The position numbers and the translations under genes were made by a program. From a virus (taxonomy: Duplodnaviria; Heunggongvirae; Uroviricota; Caudoviricetes): a stretch of DNA of 37,823 nucleotides. Under the pieces are notes generated by a model. That model was given only the letters and a program-made list of their open reading frames with translations. It had not been told where the DNA came from and searched no databases. The DNA lies in IMG/VR virus record IMGVR_UViG_2917855067_000005. One strand, 5' to 3'. The stretch's first letter is position 1. Each line of letters starts with the position of its first letter. Of the stretch, positions 32,140 to 37,823 are shown piece by piece.

Positions 32140-32340
32140 CTAATCTTTCGGATAGATATCCGGTCTTAAGTCAGATTTCGTAATTGCACCTGACGTGCAT
32201 TGCTCAAGTTTTTTAGCCAGCACAAAACTGGCTTTTTTATAGCCATTGAAAACCAGCCGTAAGTAGCCAGGTGTTGAGCCAACTTTTCCGGCCAACTCGC
32301 CCTGCTGTTCTTTGGTTAAAGAGTCCCAATACGCTTTCAT
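32140..32340 (-). CDS. cro: Cro-like repressor
   Basis: 66-aa product MKAYWDSLTKEQQGELAGKVGSTPGYLRLVFNGY... with GGAGG RBS; divergent from cI across operators; track ORF is an upstream extension. Confidence 0.65.
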   Translation of the reverse strand: MKAYWDSLTKEQQGELAGKVGSTPGYLRLVFNGYKKASFVLAKKLEQCTSGAITKSDLRPDIYPKD

Positions 32341-32342
32341 AC

Positions 32343-32415
32343 AATATGTACCTCCGGTATACATATTACATGATTGAAATGAACCTTCAAGATACTTGTA
32401 CCTTAACGGTACAAG
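32343..32415. promoter_or_regulatory. Right operator region with divergent promoters for cro and cI
   Basis: Two palindromes with TGTACC half-sites: AATATGTACCTCCGGTATACATATT (32343..32367) and CTTGTACCTTAACGGTACAAG (32395..32415); minus-strand TTGAAG-16 nt-TAATAT overlaps the first. Confidence 0.65.
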
Positions 32416-32430
32416 GGTTTTAATTTCGTT

Positions 32431-33105
32431 ATGAAAACAATCCATGACATCCGGCGGTCTAACGCCAGAAAACTGAGAGATGGTGTTGGCGGGAATTCTT
32501 CCTTTGCCACTATGATTGATCGCGAGCCAACCCAGACCAGCAGGTTTATGGGAGATGGTGCTACTAAAAATATCGGTGACAGCATGGCACGACACATCGA
32601 AAAATGTTTCGACCTGCCTGTCGGATGGCTCGATCAAGAACACCAGACAACGAACATCACAAAAAAACCTGATGTTTCAATCACTAATAAACAAATCACA
32701 TTAGTCCCTGTCATATCATGGGTACAGGCCGGAGCATGGAAAGAAGTTGGATATTCTGAGGTTGATTTGAGCACAGCAGAAACGTATCCCTGCCCTGTAC
32801 CCTGTGGGGAAATGACTTATATCTTGCGGGTGATAGGTGATTCAATGATTGATGAGTACCGCCCGGGAGACATGATTTTTGTCGATCCTGAAGTACCTGC
32901 CTGCCACGGTGACGACGTTATTGCATTGATGCACGATACAGGTGAAACCACCTTCAAAAGGTTGATAGAAGATGGGACACAGCGTTATCTCAAAGCGTTA
33001 AACCCAAACTGGCCTGAGCCTTACATTAAGATCAACGGTAATTGCTCTATAATTGGAACTGTGATTTTCTCAGGAAAACCAAGAAGATACAAAATCAAAG
33101 CCTAA
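32431..33105 (+). CDS. cI: CI-type prophage repressor (HTH plus S24/LexA-like peptidase domain)
   Basis: 224-aa ORF; C-terminal LRVIGDSMIDEYRPGDMIFVDPE ... resembles the autocleavage domain; divergent from cro. Confidence 0.85.
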   Translation: MKTIHDIRRSNARKLRDGVGGNSSFATMIDREPTQTSRFMGDGATKNIGDSMARHIEKCFDLPVGWLDQEHQTTNITKKPDVSITNKQITLVPVISWVQAGAWKEVGYSEVDLSTAETYPCPVPCGEMTYILRVIGDSMIDEYRPGDMIFVDPEVPACHGDDVIALMHDTGETTFKRLIEDGTQRYLKALNPNWPEPYIKINGNCSIIGTVIFSGKPRRYKIKA

Positions 33106-33117
33106 TCAATGTTTATG

Positions 33118-33140
33118 AACCTGCTTCGGCAGGTTTTTTT
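33118..33140 (+). terminator. Intrinsic terminator after cI
   Basis: AACCTGC-TTCG-GCAGG followed by TTTTTTT; perfect stem with UUCG tetraloop, 13 nt after the cI stop. Confidence 0.75.
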
Positions 33141-33144
33141 ATAC

Positions 33145-33172
33145 TTGACAATGTACCATTGAGATACATAAT
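33145..33172 (+). promoter_or_regulatory. pL-like promoter with operator half-sites
   Basis: TTGACA - 16 nt - CATAAT, with TGTACC operator half-sites overlapping the spacer and -10. Confidence 0.55.
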
Positions 33173-33339
33173 GTACCCAAGAGAAACAACAAACAGGCAG
33201 GACGCCCACGAAGTAGCCGCCTGGGGCATATGAAGTCCAGGATGATTCGTTAGCAACAAAAAAGCACCCTACAGGACGCTTAGCTCTTTAACAATCTGGT
33301 CCCCATCAACAAGTAACTGATAACTTGAGGAGGTGTGAA

Positions 33340-33546
33340 ATGCACAAAACAGAACCAAAAATCGTCGCGCCCGGATACACAAATGAGGAAATTTACGAGT
33401 GGATGGCAAAGAAGCTGGCAGCTATAAACCAGCTTCGTGAAGTGCTGTCTTATCGACAGGAAACAATAGACTCCTTAAAAAAACTGGATCAGGAAATCAC
33501 GGTTTTATCACAGGATGTTACTTTAGATATTGTGCAGACAAATTAG
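33340..33546 (+). CDS. Small hypothetical protein, first gene of the leftward early operon
   Basis: ATG at 33340 preceded by GAGGAGG RBS; the track's 33325 start is a TTG inside the RBS; 68 aa. Confidence 0.45.
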   Translation: MHKTEPKIVAPGYTNEEIYEWMAKKLAAINQLREVLSYRQETIDSLKKLDQEITVLSQDVTLDIVQTN

Positions 33547-33952
33547 GATCCCATTCATTTTCGTCAAAATCATCAAAGTGATGAATTTGTGATCTCCAGT
33601 CTCGATAATCTAAAAATTTCTGGGCGGTTACGCTTATTTTATCAAGCGTGAGTTCATCCTGAATTGAAAGAAGAAGTTCATCAAATTTCATCTCATTAAT
33701 CTGTTTTGGCATCCAGTGATGCTTCATCAGAATAAGGTGAACCAGAGCTTTTTTCCCATTCAACTGATTATAGGGAGTGCCGAATTTCTTCCGGTGCTCA
33801 TGTAAGACAAGGTCCAGAAGAGTAAGTAATGTTGCCCTTGATTCAACTTTGCTTATTTCGACTGATGACACTACCCCACTGATTTCAATGCCCCGATACT
33901 TTCCAACATTTTCACAGTGGGATTTGTACAGCGTATAGATATTACCGGACAT
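33518..33952 (-). CDS. Hypothetical protein (AT-rich moron, antisense to the pL operon)
   Basis: 144-aa ORF, visibly AT-rich, convergent with and overlapping the 3' end of the small plus-strand gene; no family recognised. Confidence 0.55.
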   Translation of the reverse strand: MSGNIYTLYKSHCENVGKYRGIEISGVVSSVEISKVESRATLLTLLDLVLHEHRKKFGTPYNQLNGKKALVHLILMKHHWMPKQINEMKFDELLLSIQDELTLDKISVTAQKFLDYRDWRSQIHHFDDFDENEWDPNLSAQYLK

Positions 33953-34238
33953 TTCTTTTCCTTTTGCGTTGTTGGGGATAACCAGATTAACCGAATCCTT
34001 GTTGTTGGGGAATAACCAGGTCCACCTCGCCTGATGTGGCTAAAAGCAGGCACATAACTGCTAAGTATTTTCAACCAGAGAGAATCCTTAGCGTTGTGGT
34101 GAATGCGGCTCAGCGCACGCGGGTTAAGGTTGAGGCTGACAGTCGACCTTCTGTGGATACCCACCCGTCTGGTGTGCAACCTTCGCCAGGCACCGGGAGG
34201 CACCCGGCACCACAACTTTATGCTGTGTGTAGTCTTGA

Positions 34239-34373
34239 CGGTACCAGTTTGTACCCTTGCTTCCGGCTGGTACCGTCCTTTTTACAAAACAGAGAAGAGC
34301 ATCACCGGACGACGGGCTCATAACCCAATCCATCCGGGGCGGCAGTCATCGCAGGTGTTCTTCTCTGTTTTGT
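34239..34373. other. GC-rich non-coding region with two strong inverted repeats (candidate structured RNA or recombination accessory element)
   Basis: Perfect 9-bp inverted repeat CGGTACCAG / CTGGTACCG (34239..34275) and a 16-bp arm pair ACAAAACAGAGAAGAG / TTCTTCTCTGTTTTGT (34284..34299, 34358..34373); only junk-like overlapping ORFs. Confidence 0.4.
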
Positions 34374-34446
34374 GGAGAAACTAACCGACCTTGCAGGGTC
34401 GATATGCAGAGACTGAACAGTTATTGAAGTAATAAGGTGATCGCAT

Positions 34447-34692
34447 ATGCTTCAAATGTTAACTCTTGAAGAATGGGCTTCTGAAAAATACAGAAGTAAT
34501 CCTCCAAGCGTTTCCACGTTGCGTCGTTATGCTAAGCAGAATTTGTTTTGTCCACCGGCAATGAAACAAGGTCGGTTATGGCGAGTGCGTGAGGACGCCG
34601 AGTTAGTTGGAGAGCTGGTAACACCAGTAATTAAGAAAAATGACTCATTACTTTTGCAACGGATTTTGAGTGATGGCAGCCAGACCGCGTAA
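34447..34692 (+). CDS. xis: Excisionase
   Basis: 81-aa ORF immediately upstream of and overlapping int; MLTLEEWASEKYRSNPPSVSTLRRYAK pattern of lambdoid excisionase-like proteins. Confidence 0.7.
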   Translation: MLQMLTLEEWASEKYRSNPPSVSTLRRYAKQNLFCPPAMKQGRLWRVREDAELVGELVTPVIKKNDSLLLQRILSDGSQTA

Positions 34693-35801
34693 GAATAATG
34701 TTTCAGTCCCTAACTTATATCCGCTTTATAGCCGAAAGGTAAATAAAGTCTATTGGCGGTATAAGCATCCAATAACAGGGAAATTCCATGCTTTGGGAAC
34801 AAACGAAACTGAAGCTATCGCTATTGCCACTGAAGCCAATACGCGCCTGGCTGAACAAAGAACCCGGCAGATTCTGGCCATCAGTGACAGGATCGCAACC
34901 AGCAAAGGGAAAGCAATCACAACGTCAACTTGGTTAGATCGCTATCAAGCGATCCAGAATGACAGGCTGAAAAAGTGGTGATATAAAGCTCAACACCTAC
35001 AAGCAGAAAGCCAAACCTGTCTCCTTACTTAGAGAACGGGCAGGATTGAAGCTAATTTCAGCTGTTGATGTCCGGGATATTGCACAATTACTTGATGAGT
35101 ATATTGCCGCTGGGCAACCGAGAATGGCACAAGTAGTTCGCTCCGTCCTGATTGATGTTTTCAAAGAGGCGCAGCACTACGGAGAAGTACCTCCTGGCTA
35201 TAACCCTGCATTAGCTACTAAACAGCCAAGAAGAAAAATTACCCGACAAAGGCTGAGCCTCGAAGAATGGAAAAAAATATTCGATATCGCAGATGCCAGC
35301 CATCGTTACATGGGAAATGCCATGCTGCTAGCCTTGGTTACTGGTCAGCGGTTAGGCGATATTTCACGTATGAAATTTAGCGATATTTGGGATGATCATC
35401 TGCATGTCATTCAGGAAAAAACCGGGAGCAAAATCGCCATCCCGCTTTCCCTGCGCCTCAATGCGATTAACTGGAGTTTGCGCGATGTAGTAGCCCGTTG
35501 CCGTGACTATGCTGTCAGCCCATACCTTGTACATTTTTTTCGTACTACTTCACAGGCTGAACGCGGCGCACAGGTTAAAGCCAATACCTTGACTATGAAT
35601 TTCAGTAAAGCAAGAGATTTAGCAGGAATTGACTGGGGTGAAGGTTCTCCCGCAACATTTCATGAACAAAGGTCTTTATCAGAACGTTTGTATAAAGAAC
35701 AGGGTTTAAATACACAAAAATTACTTGGTCATAAAACACAACAACAAACCGATCGTTATCATGACGATCGAGGCAAGGGATGGAGCAAAGTAGCGTTGTG
35801 A
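34670..35801 (+). CDS. int: Tyrosine integrase (lambda Int family), interrupted by a 1-nt frameshift in an A5 run (34980..34984)
   Basis: Track ORFs 34670..34981 (arm-binding N-terminus) and 35046..35801 (catalytic domain ... HEQRSLSERLYKEQ ... LLGHK ... DRYHDDRG); removing one A gives ...NDRLKSGDIKLNTYKQ.... Confidence 0.85.
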
Positions 35802-35951: not shown

Positions 35952-37823
35952 TTAAACCACGATTCCTAAATGGCATGGTTGCTCACCTTCAAGAGAGGCT
36001 CTCATTAAGGTCAGGAATTGGGATAAATTATTTCTAAAATCAGAACCACTATCTTCCGCCATTCCTGGAGCTAACGAACTTACTAATAAAGCAGGTGTGA
36101 TAGGTCTTGTTCCGTAAATACTATATTTCTCATGATGGAAATGACGAGTCTCGCAAGATTCACTTGGATTTACAATCATCAGCCCAGAAGACAAACTTTT
36201 TCCAGTATTTTTTTCATGTATACCATGAAGGTATTTCATAGTGAGTTCGGGGAGGTAATGTGTAAACGCTTTTTTACTGGTAGTATACTTTGCATCTAGG
36301 ATTAATTGCCTTTGTTCACCCGTAGGCGTTGAAATGCAAACTATCATGTCTGGTGATCGATTAGCATTAGGACCTTGCTGCCCTCTAGGCTTCAATTTAC
36401 CTTTCACGGTGTCTAGAGTCCACCCTTCGGAGTTAATTAGGGAAGCCCCAAAAGAGCTTGCATGATCATGAGTCCAAATTTTCATCTCATAGATAAGCTG
36501 TACAGTAAAACCTCCCCAGTCATACTCAAAATTATTCCGTTCTATTACAGGGCCATTCACTAGCTCAAACTTCATGCCCAATAGCCGTACGTTGTCAAAG
36601 TGATACTTAATTAAAAATAATAGGTAGTATTCAAAAAGTTTTGGGATACTTTGTATCGAAAATAGCTCTTCCTGTACGCTCCAATCAGGTGCGCCGAATC
36701 TATGCCAAGCAATTATTTTATGAAAAACCTTCTGATAATGAAGGTTGTATCTAGCTTTTCTTGTGAATTGCGGAGTGCCAATGATAATATTAGTTACAGG
36801 AACCCGCTCATCAAAAGTTCGTTTCAAACGCTGTAGATTAATAATCAATTCTTTACATCGTGAAACTTTATTTTTATTTACAACCTTTGCAAACTTACTT
36901 AGCTGTGCAAAAAATGAAATATACCCGGATATGCTCGACTGTTCACGAATTCTGGAAGAAGGATACTCTTCAAGCCGACTCAAGATCTCCGATGCAGCAC
37001 GCATTAGGGATACTATAAAGCCATGGACAACTTGATTTTCATAAATATTCAAATCCTCTTTTAGATGATTTTCTAATATTCGTTCCGATGAATAATATGT
37101 GCCATCTAGTTCCAATATTGCGCGGGTCTGATCATTAACTGGATAAAGGTTGTCAGAGTTTTCTGAAATCCAAGCTAAAGTGGTGTCATCGATAACAGAG
37201 TTTTCGGATACTACGACAACTTTAGTCACTGGTGTAAGTTTTGCGATTGGCCTGGAATAGATATTTGGAATCTCGGTCATTAACAATAAAACATTTCGTT
37301 CGAGTTGTTCAATCAAAAAGCTAACCGATCTTTCTCCTTCTTTGAATCCTGCATTTATACGAGTTACTCTAAAAAATGCTGCTAGAGCATCATTATCATG
37401 ACACGCTAAGAAATCGAGCATTTTTTCTGCCCGTTCAGCATTCAATTTTTTGGCAAATACTTCAACCGGAGAATATTGTTCAATAATAACTCTTTCGCCA
37501 ACTCCATCGATTTTTGTTACTATCGATAGCTCTGCCATACCATAATAGTTATGAAAAAAGCATTCGTATGTTGATCGATATATAGATTTTGGTTTCCATT
37601 CGTAAATCCATAGGCCATCGTATTCTTTGCTAGAAGTTATTCCTATTTCATTTTCATGAAGACATAAAAAAACATCATCCAACGGAACAGATGCTTCCAG
37701 CCTAAACTCTAGAGCTTCGTCTTCCAGAAAATAAATCTGATTAGAGGACTGAAGACCAAAGGGAGTCAACCCTATCTCTAGACCACTTCTCCTGCCGTTT
37801 ATTATCTTCGCAGTAAACCTCAT
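35952..37823 (-). CDS. Large hypothetical protein with C-terminal PD-(D/E)xK-like nuclease motif (candidate restriction/defence component)
   Basis: 623-aa intact ORF starting at the last three bases of the window; visibly AT-rich; motif SPDMIVCISTPTGEQRQLILDAKY fits PD ... (D/E)xK spacing. Confidence 0.65.
   Translation of the reverse strand: MRFTAKIINGRRSGLEIGLTPFGLQSSNQIYFLEDEALEFRLEASVPLDDVFLCLHENEIGITSSKEYDGLWIYEWKPKSIYRSTYECFFHNYYGMAELSIVTKIDGVGERVIIEQYSPVEVFAKKLNAERAEKMLDFLACHDNDALAAFFRVTRINAGFKEGERSVSFLIEQLERNVLLLMTEIPNIYSRPIAKLTPVTKVVVVSENSVIDDTTLAWISENSDNLYPVNDQTRAILELDGTYYSSERILENHLKEDLNIYENQVVHGFIVSLMRAASEILSRLEEYPSSRIREQSSISGYISFFAQLSKFAKVVNKNKVSRCKELIINLQRLKRTFDERVPVTNIIIGTPQFTRKARYNLHYQKVFHKIIAWHRFGAPDWSVQEELFSIQSIPKLFEYYLLFLIKYHFDNVRLLGMKFELVNGPVIERNNFEYDWGGFTVQLIYEMKIWTHDHASSFGASLINSEGWTLDTVKGKLKPRGQQGPNANRSPDMIVCISTPTGEQRQLILDAKYTTSKKAFTHYLPELTMKYLHGIHEKNTGKSLSSGLMIVNPSESCETRHFHHEKYSIYGTRPITPALLVSSLAPGMAEDSGSDFRNNLSQFLTLMRASLEGEQPCHLGIVV

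Follow-up and report, generated by a model that had tools for sequence, protein, structure and literature searches.

Are two small genes that run head-on into each other beside the repressor gene of a prophage chance neighbours, or do they belong together? The question is raised by a stretch of 37,823 nucleotides (nt) from IMG/VR virus record IMGVR_UViG_2917855067_000005, referred to here as the window, which is an e14/SfIV-type lambdoid prophage of Escherichia coli. Downstream of its cI-type repressor gene, a gene of 68 amino acid residues (aa) meets a gene of 144 aa on the opposite strand. An initial annotation, made from the sequence alone, had singled out cI, its terminator, a pL-like promoter, the 68-aa gene with its strong ribosome binding site and the overlapping AT-rich 144-aa gene, and all of these are present where it placed them. 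Its reading needs revision on two points. The genes are not independent neighbours but form a co-inherited module whose small member is a homologue of YdfC, and closeness to cI does not define the pair, which is found also between Q and holin genes, within a P2-like early operon and in an operon of the pR type.

In the window the module occupies a cassette of 766 base pairs (bp) that directly follows the apparently repressor-controlled pL-like promoter and its leader. Each protein falls into a recognizable family, and members of the two families are paired in other prophages with a fixed orientation and a conserved overlap of their open reading frames (ORFs). The parts of the pair are:

33256–34021, no strand assigned: swappable cassette of 766 bp, delimited by pairwise alignment with K-12 e14
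33327–33333, plus strand: Shine–Dalgarno sequence GAGGAGG of the 68-aa gene, found by reading the sequence
33340–33546, plus strand: 68-aa ORF, YdfC family
33518–33952, minus strand: 144-aa ORF, ECs1072 family
33518–33546, no strand assigned: 29-nt antiparallel overlap of the two coding sequences, found by sequence reading and comparison

The 144-aa protein belongs to the ECs1072 family of phage-associated proteins. It scores 157.8 bits against NCBIfam NF033230 (cutoff 70), with residues 4–144 on profile positions 2–142, and it matches phrog_5286 from end to end (residues 1–144 of 144; expectation value (E) 1.5e-90). An exhaustive profile search gathers 76 clusters at 50% identity in this family, nearly all of them single-domain proteins of 145–155 aa, and the alignment reveals conserved residues R39, D/E47, H53-R54, G66, H72, W80 and W134. 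The AlphaFold2 model is all-helical, with a predicted local distance difference test score (pLDDT) of 77.7 and a predicted template modelling score of 0.78, and the protein is cytoplasmic. Membership of the HD, HD-GYP or HDOD families, with their metal-binding motif H...HD...D, was considered; HR occupies the place where an HD domain has HD, and therefore the protein is not classed as an HD protein.

The 68-aa protein matches phrog_1744 over residues 1–68 of 68 (E 4.8e-34) and shares 37.9–39.4% identity over residues 1–66 with YdfC of Qin-type phages (tblastn, E 1e-8 to 2e-8). A profile search with the small family yields 434 clusters at 90% identity, and proteins named YdfC are among the matches. 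In the AlphaFold2 model (mean pLDDT 85) its N-terminus, which carries a conserved EP..P..T.EE..W motif, is unstructured, and residues 15–67 form one long helix. Its gene is also in the position typical of the YdfC family, i.e. first after an operator-bearing pL-like promoter and with a STnc100/DicF-like RNA to its 3′ side. In the Qin prophage, ydfC is the third gene of the dicBF operon and its function is not known (PMC5069750).

The homology and structure searches that the initial annotation had recommended thus place both genes in families, but they lead only to uncharacterised family names and to no significant fold match. Sequence searches with both proteins in Pfam, NCBIfam, PADLOC and PDB returned nothing other than such names; for the 144-aa protein, Pfam, PADLOC and PDB gave no sequence match even with all 44 aligned relatives included in the scan, and its predicted fold has no significant structural match. 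Both genes are nevertheless real and under purifying selection. The ratio of nonsynonymous to synonymous substitution rates (dN/dS) is 0.23 for the 144-aa gene (window versus the E. albertii copy, 72% identity) and 0.27 for the 68-aa gene (window versus a metagenomic locus, L017, 50% identity), synonymous sites being saturated in pairs more distant than these. In addition, both genes are annotated as coding sequences in RefSeq genomes. Conservation and coding signal, which the initial annotation had named among the points on which its proposal could fall, are in place: full-length profile matches and hundreds of homologues accompany the low dN/dS values.

The strongest evidence that the genes belong together comes from their recurrence. 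Contexts were gathered by tblastn and exact-protein look-ups; a profile search from a shallow alignment gave only three loci. Searches with the large protein reveal relatives of about 30–35% identity in Salmonella phage ST64B, in Klebsiella phages and in a Serratia quinivorans prophage, where they lie between the Q antiterminator and holin genes on the strand opposite to the late genes. At each of these loci a small gene converges on the large one and overlaps its 3′ end. Profile–profile comparison by hhalign identifies the small proteins as homologues of the YdfC group (probability 90.8%, E 1.2e-6, alignment beginning at residue 1). The pair is found beside cI in E. albertii and in a metagenomic contig, and within the early operon of a Pantoea P2-like prophage. 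In prophage Sp4 of E. coli O157:H7 Sakai (L030 4168–4816), the namesake gene ECs1072 (now ECs_5703) is antisense in the pR operon, between cII-like and replication genes; its protein also matches the large-family profile built in this analysis, and an unannotated YdfC-like ORF converges on it (profile E 5.7e-5, the weakest small-protein match of the twelve). When the search is started from the small protein, the result is the same: four divergent queries, from Citrobacter, Enterobacter, Serratia marcescens and Kluyvera, led in four cases out of four to a locus with a converging ECs1072-family gene, with overlaps of 74–110 nt.

Altogether there are twelve distinct contexts with a directly overlapping convergent pair, and one in which another gene separates the partners. 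Four kinds of lytic operon host the pair: pL, pR (Sakai Sp4), P2-like early, and the late operon between Q and holin (ST64B, Klebsiella, Serratia, Citrobacter, Enterobacter and Kluyvera prophages). In all cases the small gene runs along the lytic operon and the large gene opposes it. Relatives occur in prophages of Shigella, Salmonella, Klebsiella, Citrobacter, Enterobacter, Serratia, Proteus, Pantoea and Pectobacterium. Some members have escaped annotation; the ECs1072-family gene is missing from the records of ST64B (L005 2845–3279; AY055382) and of Klebsiella phage KPP5665-2 (L006 2845–3291), and the ST64B record has only the partner, sb50, whose annotated N-terminus is probably over-extended.

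The overlap itself is a conserved property, and is kept at 29–110 nt across the twelve contexts. In the Q–holin group a single palindrome, TGGGATCCCA, supplies W-D-P to both proteins, as ...DWDPxEN... in the large one and ...SFPWDPSP... in the small one. In the window, the stop codon TAG of the small gene (33544–33546) falls where relatives have TGG inside TGGGATCCCA, which leaves the 68-aa protein with a shortened C-terminus. For the large gene the change from TGG to TAG is synonymous (CCC to CCT).

That the pair lies in a swappable cassette becomes apparent from a comparison with K-12 e14. The two prophages are nearly identical through cI, its terminator, pL and approximately 100 nt of leader up to about position 33255, are unrelated over the next 766 nt, and are nearly identical again from 34022. 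The cassette has a guanine plus cytosine content of 34–43%, compared with 53–56% in the conserved region just 3′ to it (34000–34400). In K-12 e14 the same slot holds ymfJ (102 aa, pL strand) and ymfI (113 aa, opposite strand), which are also convergent and overlapping. The likeness is close, as it extends to the exact slot, the near-identical flanks, a small gene on the pL strand, a convergent overlapping gene on the other strand, and a GCCTG..CCAC..CAGGC..GTGG motif upstream of the antisense gene. However, the e14 proteins have no detectable sequence or profile similarity to the window pair, and the possibility that they are diverged homologues is ruled out by the lack of similarity in BLAST and hhalign.

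In further phages that share these flanks the cargo differs again: orf33 on the pL strand in SfV, an HTH_17 protein in mEp460 and a 242-aa antisense gene in PhiR29. None of this cargo matched a known defence model, save for a weak match of the mEp460 HTH protein to mad1. The replacement of 766 bp relative to e14, together with the alternative cargo of SfV, mEp460 and PhiR29, is what is expected of a moron insertion. As to the signals that a moron brings with it, a conserved terminator is present in the cassette, and lysogen expression and a start site are documented in the literature for the ST64B homologue rather than for this window. Among complete E. coli genomes, 408 of 5,426 (~7.5%) match at least 80% of the query and so carry this cassette, and 2,816 of the 5,426 match part of it.

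Additional antisense genes are seen near such slots. PPompW (L007 3242–3860) has a 77-aa antisense gene after ydfC, and the Q–holin region of Citrobacter and Enterobacter (L018 1424–2832, L021 2114–2860) encodes DUF6731 and DUF6650 proteins. With such uncharacterised antisense genes beside the module or in equivalent positions, the slots are seen to gather several kinds of unknown cargo.

The signals that would govern expression of the pair lie at both edges of the cassette and just beyond:

33117–33136, plus strand: intrinsic terminator of the cI (ymfK-type) gene, from a terminator scan, identical in K-12 e14
33145–33172, plus strand: pL-like sigma-70 promoter, TTGACA-16-CATAAT, from a promoter scan, 11 of 12 consensus matches
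33152–33168 (between –35 and –10) and 33172–33188 (just past the promoter), plus strand: operator-like TGTACC-N7-TACA sites
33262–33281, minus strand: hairpin followed by a T-run, likely 3′ end of the 144-aa gene transcript, from a terminator scan
33969–34021, minus strand: 5′ leader of the 144-aa gene, from a repeat finder (families D2 and I4) and comparison of upstream regions
34022–34051, minus strand: interleaved inverted repeat GCCTG-N7-9-CCAC-NT-CAGGC-N3-4-GTGG, at the cassette edge and upstream of the antisense gene, from a pattern search
34063–34286, plus strand: STnc100-like RNA region of the pL transcript, Rfam RF02076

The operator-like motif TGTACC-N7-TACA is present in only four copies in the 37.8 kilobases, two in the cro–cI intergenic region (32347 and 32397) and two at the pL-like promoter, and none of 100 shuffled sequences equalled this count. 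Since the motif is confined to these two places, control of the pL-like promoter by the repressor is well supported by sequence. The first strong terminator on the pL strand past the cassette is at 34237–34277 (–21.1 kcal/mol, z –2.8); it ends the STnc100-like region and with it the pL-proximal transcription unit. Transcription from pL would thus cross the 144-aa gene over its full length in the antisense direction. The match of the STnc100-like region to RF02076 is 44.7 bits (E 1.2e-7), just below the gathering score of 47, and the terminator has a weak similarity to DicF (19.9 bits). Some genomes annotate a frameshifted ymfH/YfdP-like ORF at 34063–34286. In Qin, a STnc100-like match directly follows dicF, and the order ydfC, untranslated stretch, small RNA is common to Qin and the window.

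On the other strand, the hairpin at 33262–33281 lies approximately 60 nt beyond the start codon of the 68-aa gene and just within the cassette edge; for the cI-adjacent group the distance from the start of the small gene is about 75 nt. From its position, the 144-aa gene transcript would be antisense to the whole 68-aa gene. The stability of the hairpin is modest (–6.7 kcal/mol), and its position is kept, with a changed stem, in the E. albertii (L016) and metagenomic (L017) cassettes. In the Q–holin group, terminator-like hairpins on the large-gene strand are found about 50 nt past the stop codon of the large gene, within the small gene.

Upstream of the large gene, relatives have a conserved element with a possible extended –10. 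In the window, the leader of the 144-aa gene contains a tandem duplicate of the element CTGGTTAT(T)CCCCAACAAC (copies at 33969–33988 and 34003–34021). A third copy of this CTGGT(TAT)CCCCA(T)CAACAA element, inverted, is upstream of the 68-aa gene at 33293–33312, and all copies have an identical orientation relative to the gene that each precedes. Perhaps it is a shared regulatory or translational element. The inverted repeat at 34022–34051 matches once in the window against an expectation of zero, is found in 13 loci (including L003 5426–5449, L007 2954–2977, L010–L013, L016, L017 and L022) and is often followed by TATCTT. It precedes antisense genes of unrelated cassettes (ECs1072-like genes and K-12 ymfI) in differing operon contexts. 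In its alignment 97.5% of cells are paired and there are two compensatory changes, one per stem, both contributed by the Pantoea copy alone; folding energies are unremarkable. The repeat may function in DNA, as promoter plus operator, or else in RNA, perhaps as a pseudoknot.

Evidence for expression comes from a relative. The gene STMMW_20121 of ST64B is 435 bp in length, adjoins the holin gene and overlaps STMMW_20131 by 71 nt (Owen et al. 2020 supplementary table, PMC7067206), which is exactly the geometry of the ECs1072-like/YdfC-like pair located in ST64B. It has its own promoter and start site, is transcribed in almost all lysogen conditions antisense to lytic genes, and was proposed as a candidate accessory gene (PMC7067206). 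Its level is ~60–270 transcripts per million (TPM) in 16 of 17 lysogen conditions and 4.9 in the remaining one, compared with 22–258 for STMMW_20131, 2–7 for Q and 0.3–33 for the holin gene (PMC7067206). According to these data, at least one relative expresses the large gene in the lysogen and convergent transcription across the pair does occur, and strict mutual exclusion fails there. A pR′-like promoter-like site is present between Q and the small gene of ST64B, and a lytic-strand terminator lies beyond the large gene and before the holin gene; the small gene is probably transcribed from a constitutive pR′-type promoter, as part of a leader transcript.

Further observations come from other members and from the e14 cargo. 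ECs1072 was detected on arrays in uninduced Sakai (PMC2241611). Induction of e14 ymfJ, seen for the gene as well as the protein, comes late in the SOS response and is attributed by the authors to cI-type control (PMC11002266), and ymfI–ymfJ is listed as a convergent excludon (PMC12288877). A small RNA that limits phage adsorption, svsR, was reported in 2026 from the icd-integrated prophage NC-SV, where it is encoded at the cI 3′ end (PMC12803456). As an explanation of the present locus svsR was set aside; it maps to the cI 3′ end (window ~33030–33141), outside the cassette.

Genes next to a phage repressor gene have well-known precedents. Lambda rexAB and the sieB genes of lambda and P22 are expressed in the lysogen, adjoin the repressor gene and exclude other phages. 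The sieB/esc and BstA/aba systems include means of sparing the resident phage, and rexAB and bstA are co-transcribed with cI. The window proteins differ in that they have no sequence, profile or fold similarity to the proteins of these systems, and the 144-aa gene is antisense to pL. Neither protein is similar to Rex or Sie families in Pfam, PHROG or PADLOC, and neither matched any known or candidate defence model of PADLOC-DB v2 at E ≤ 0.1. Of the lysogen-expressed exclusion function suggested in the initial annotation, the part concerning lysogen expression is borne out indirectly by STMMW_20121, but exclusion gains nothing from PADLOC, Pfam, PDB or fold comparisons.

Further likenesses are found elsewhere. 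In the Qin dicBF operon (ydfA-ydfB-ydfC-dicF-dicB), a YdfC homologue is likewise promoter-proximal in a repressor-controlled pL-type operon; after ydfC comes an untranslated stretch with a DicF/STnc100-like RNA and its terminator at the end. However, Qin has no ECs1072-like antisense gene, its YdfC has 72 aa, and the DicF match of the window is weak. STMMW_20121 of ST64B is similar in length (144 aa; profile E 1e-41), in its overlap with the YdfC-like sb50/STMMW_20131 and in being antisense to lytic genes; it differs in that the locus is between Q and holin, not beside cI, and the partner is transcribed in the lysogen. Neither the partner gene nor the family of STMMW_20121 is described in PMC7067206. 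Excludons are genes, convergent or divergent, whose transcripts overlap (ExcludonFinder, PMC12288877). The pair resembles them in having convergent, overlapping coding sequences and predicted transcripts, with terminators that would make each transcript antisense to the other gene. The coding overlap of 29 nt here is up to 110 nt in relatives, and terminator positions predict a long transcript overlap. Unlike an excludon, the ST64B homologue pair displays no mutually exclusive expression in bulk data, and the overlap in the window is dual-coding and conserved as part of a mobile cassette.

Positions 33100–34450 have 98% identity to Shigella phage SfIV and 99.7% to prophages of several E. coli chromosomes, in which the annotated neighbours are ymfT (cro-like), ymfK (LexA/cI-like repressor), xisE and intE. 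An ORF listing and Pfam establish the following layout:

32143–32343, minus strand: cro-like gene
32431–33105, plus strand: cI/YmfK-type S24 repressor gene, from the ORF list and Pfam
34447–34692: excisionase gene
34670–35801, plus strand: integrase gene (intE type)

Relative to the intact 375-aa intE of strain 82.0311, the intE-type gene has an extra A near position 34970, and this one-nucleotide insertion splits it into ORFs of 103 and 251 aa. The prophage may have lost the ability to excise, or else the extra A reflects an error in sequencing. Beyond int, where K-12 e14 has lit, positions 35952–37823 (minus strand) encode a 623-aa DUF2357 protein with a PD-(D/E)xK-like DAKY motif, which extends past the end of the stretch. 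In related genomes this gene adjoins a large hypothetical gene. The protein has no PADLOC or NCBIfam match; the region looks like a second variable cargo slot, and probably holds a defence system.

What, then, might the pair do? The account that seems to fit best, though it is offered tentatively and with somewhat less than even confidence, is that of a portable two-gene accessory module, or moron, in which the small partner and convergent transcription both modulate a large protein of the lysogenic phase. The 144-aa protein would be produced in the lysogen and would have an accessory function there, most likely interference with incoming phages or with phage development; this role is proposed because of the moron-like placement and the precedent of exclusion genes in immunity regions. 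The large-gene transcript would run antisense across the small gene as far as the 33262–33281 terminator. After repressor cleavage, pL would fire, the small protein would be made, and transcription would continue antisense through the 144-aa gene to the STnc100-like terminator. The small protein may then bind and modulate the large one, and convergent transcription with RNA duplex formation would lower the amount of 144-aa mRNA. The activity of the lysogen-phase protein could thereby be coupled to the state of the phage's own lytic programme. A bolder form of this proposal, possible but doubtful, is a widely mobile, self-sparing exclusion module not recognised before. Here the lysogen effector would protect the host, or the prophage, from other phages, the convergent small protein, whose dose reports the lytic promoter, would switch off or retarget it, the dual-coding overlap would keep the genes inseparable, and the module could plug into any lytic operon.

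Several observations weigh against the proposed accessory module. A consensus promoter scan of the window found no promoter for the 144-aa gene. Expression of STMMW_20121 and STMMW_20131 is not anticorrelated (Spearman rho +0.37, not significant), although these are bulk lysogen data from another operon context and do not exclude a switch upon induction. With both genes transcribed in this way, a simple on/off excludon is not supported in ST64B. Thus, of the antisense regulation that the initial annotation had read into the overlap, the structural part stands, the overlap being conserved throughout, but mutually exclusive expression is unseen in ST64B. In the window, the small gene depends on a repressed pL, so that the balance should shift only on induction. 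Finally, the partners are not strictly inseparable. In Proteus they lie beside cI with an extra gene between them, the large gene is alone, with no recognisable partner, in two contexts (a Pectobacterium prophage, L011, and L015), and YdfC is alone in two others (Qin and PPompW). These same loci, and the unrelated cargo that the slot holds in other phages, speak for independent neighbours, i.e. an ordinary promoter-proximal YdfC-like lytic gene next to an unrelated moron, with an overlap that entails no functional coupling beyond shared DNA. Such an arrangement is unlikely when it is considered that the pair stays together in the twelve contexts, spread over four types of operon and nine or more genera, although the proteins are only ~30% identical, that each of the four look-ups with divergent small proteins gave an ECs1072-like partner, and that the overlap is in register, with both proteins reading W-D-P from one palindrome.

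A toxin–antitoxin-like abortive infection system, in which the 144-aa protein is a growth-arresting effector that its small partner restrains until an infecting phage stops host expression, would agree with the transcription of both ST64B genes in the lysogen at similar levels (~100 TPM). A small helical protein next to a ~145-aa protein with conserved His and Arg also recalls small toxin–antitoxin modules, and there is a weak, non-significant Foldseek similarity to HEPN toxins of HEPN-MNT (E > 2, template modelling score ~0.25). But the layout is not that of a type II system, as the genes are convergent and not co-transcribed. Behind the repressed pL of the window and of K-12-type prophages, the small gene is expected to be silent in a lysogen that expresses the large gene; a toxic effector in constant need of its antidote is incompatible with this. 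The HEPN motif Rx4-6H is absent, PADLOC gives no match, and ECs1072-like genes with no partner exist; this explanation is improbable. It is also conceivable, though very unlikely, that the cassette is chiefly a cis-acting device, whereby transcription of the antisense gene shields the lytic genes that follow (xis/int in the window, lysis genes in other contexts) from leaky transcription by pL or pR′ and the proteins are secondary. The cassette is always promoter-proximal in the lytic operon and opposes it, the unrelated ymfJ/ymfI cassette retains the same geometry and upstream motif, and in ST64B a pR′-like promoter, the pair and a lytic-strand terminator stand serially before the holin gene. 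A purely cis role, however, does not need the purifying selection and long-distance conservation that both proteins display. That one or both ORFs are spurious, chance products of AT-rich DNA, is scarcely credible. The SfIV GenBank record does leave the 68-aa ORF unannotated and shows a doubtful overlapping ORF, SfIV_35, in its place, but the idea is already refuted by the end-to-end profile matches, the dN/dS values, the number of homologues, the RefSeq annotation and the RNA sequencing of a homologue.

Both families have been catalogued before as hypothetical proteins, and the ST64B member was flagged as a candidate accessory gene. In the literature searched, no description was found of the pairing with YdfC-like genes, of the conserved dual-coding overlap, or of movement between pL, pR, P2-like early and late operons. 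Recognition of a conserved convergent unit turns two orphan genes into a testable system, the carriers of which include the well-studied ST64B, Sakai Sp4 and SfIV. For the YdfC family, uncharacterised although it belongs to the classic dicBF operon, the pairing points to a possible role. Should the large protein turn out to act in exclusion, a type of defence missed by current detectors would be added to those known. The locus also provides a small natural example of the way in which gene geometry might tie a function of the lysogenic phase to the lytic switch of the prophage itself.

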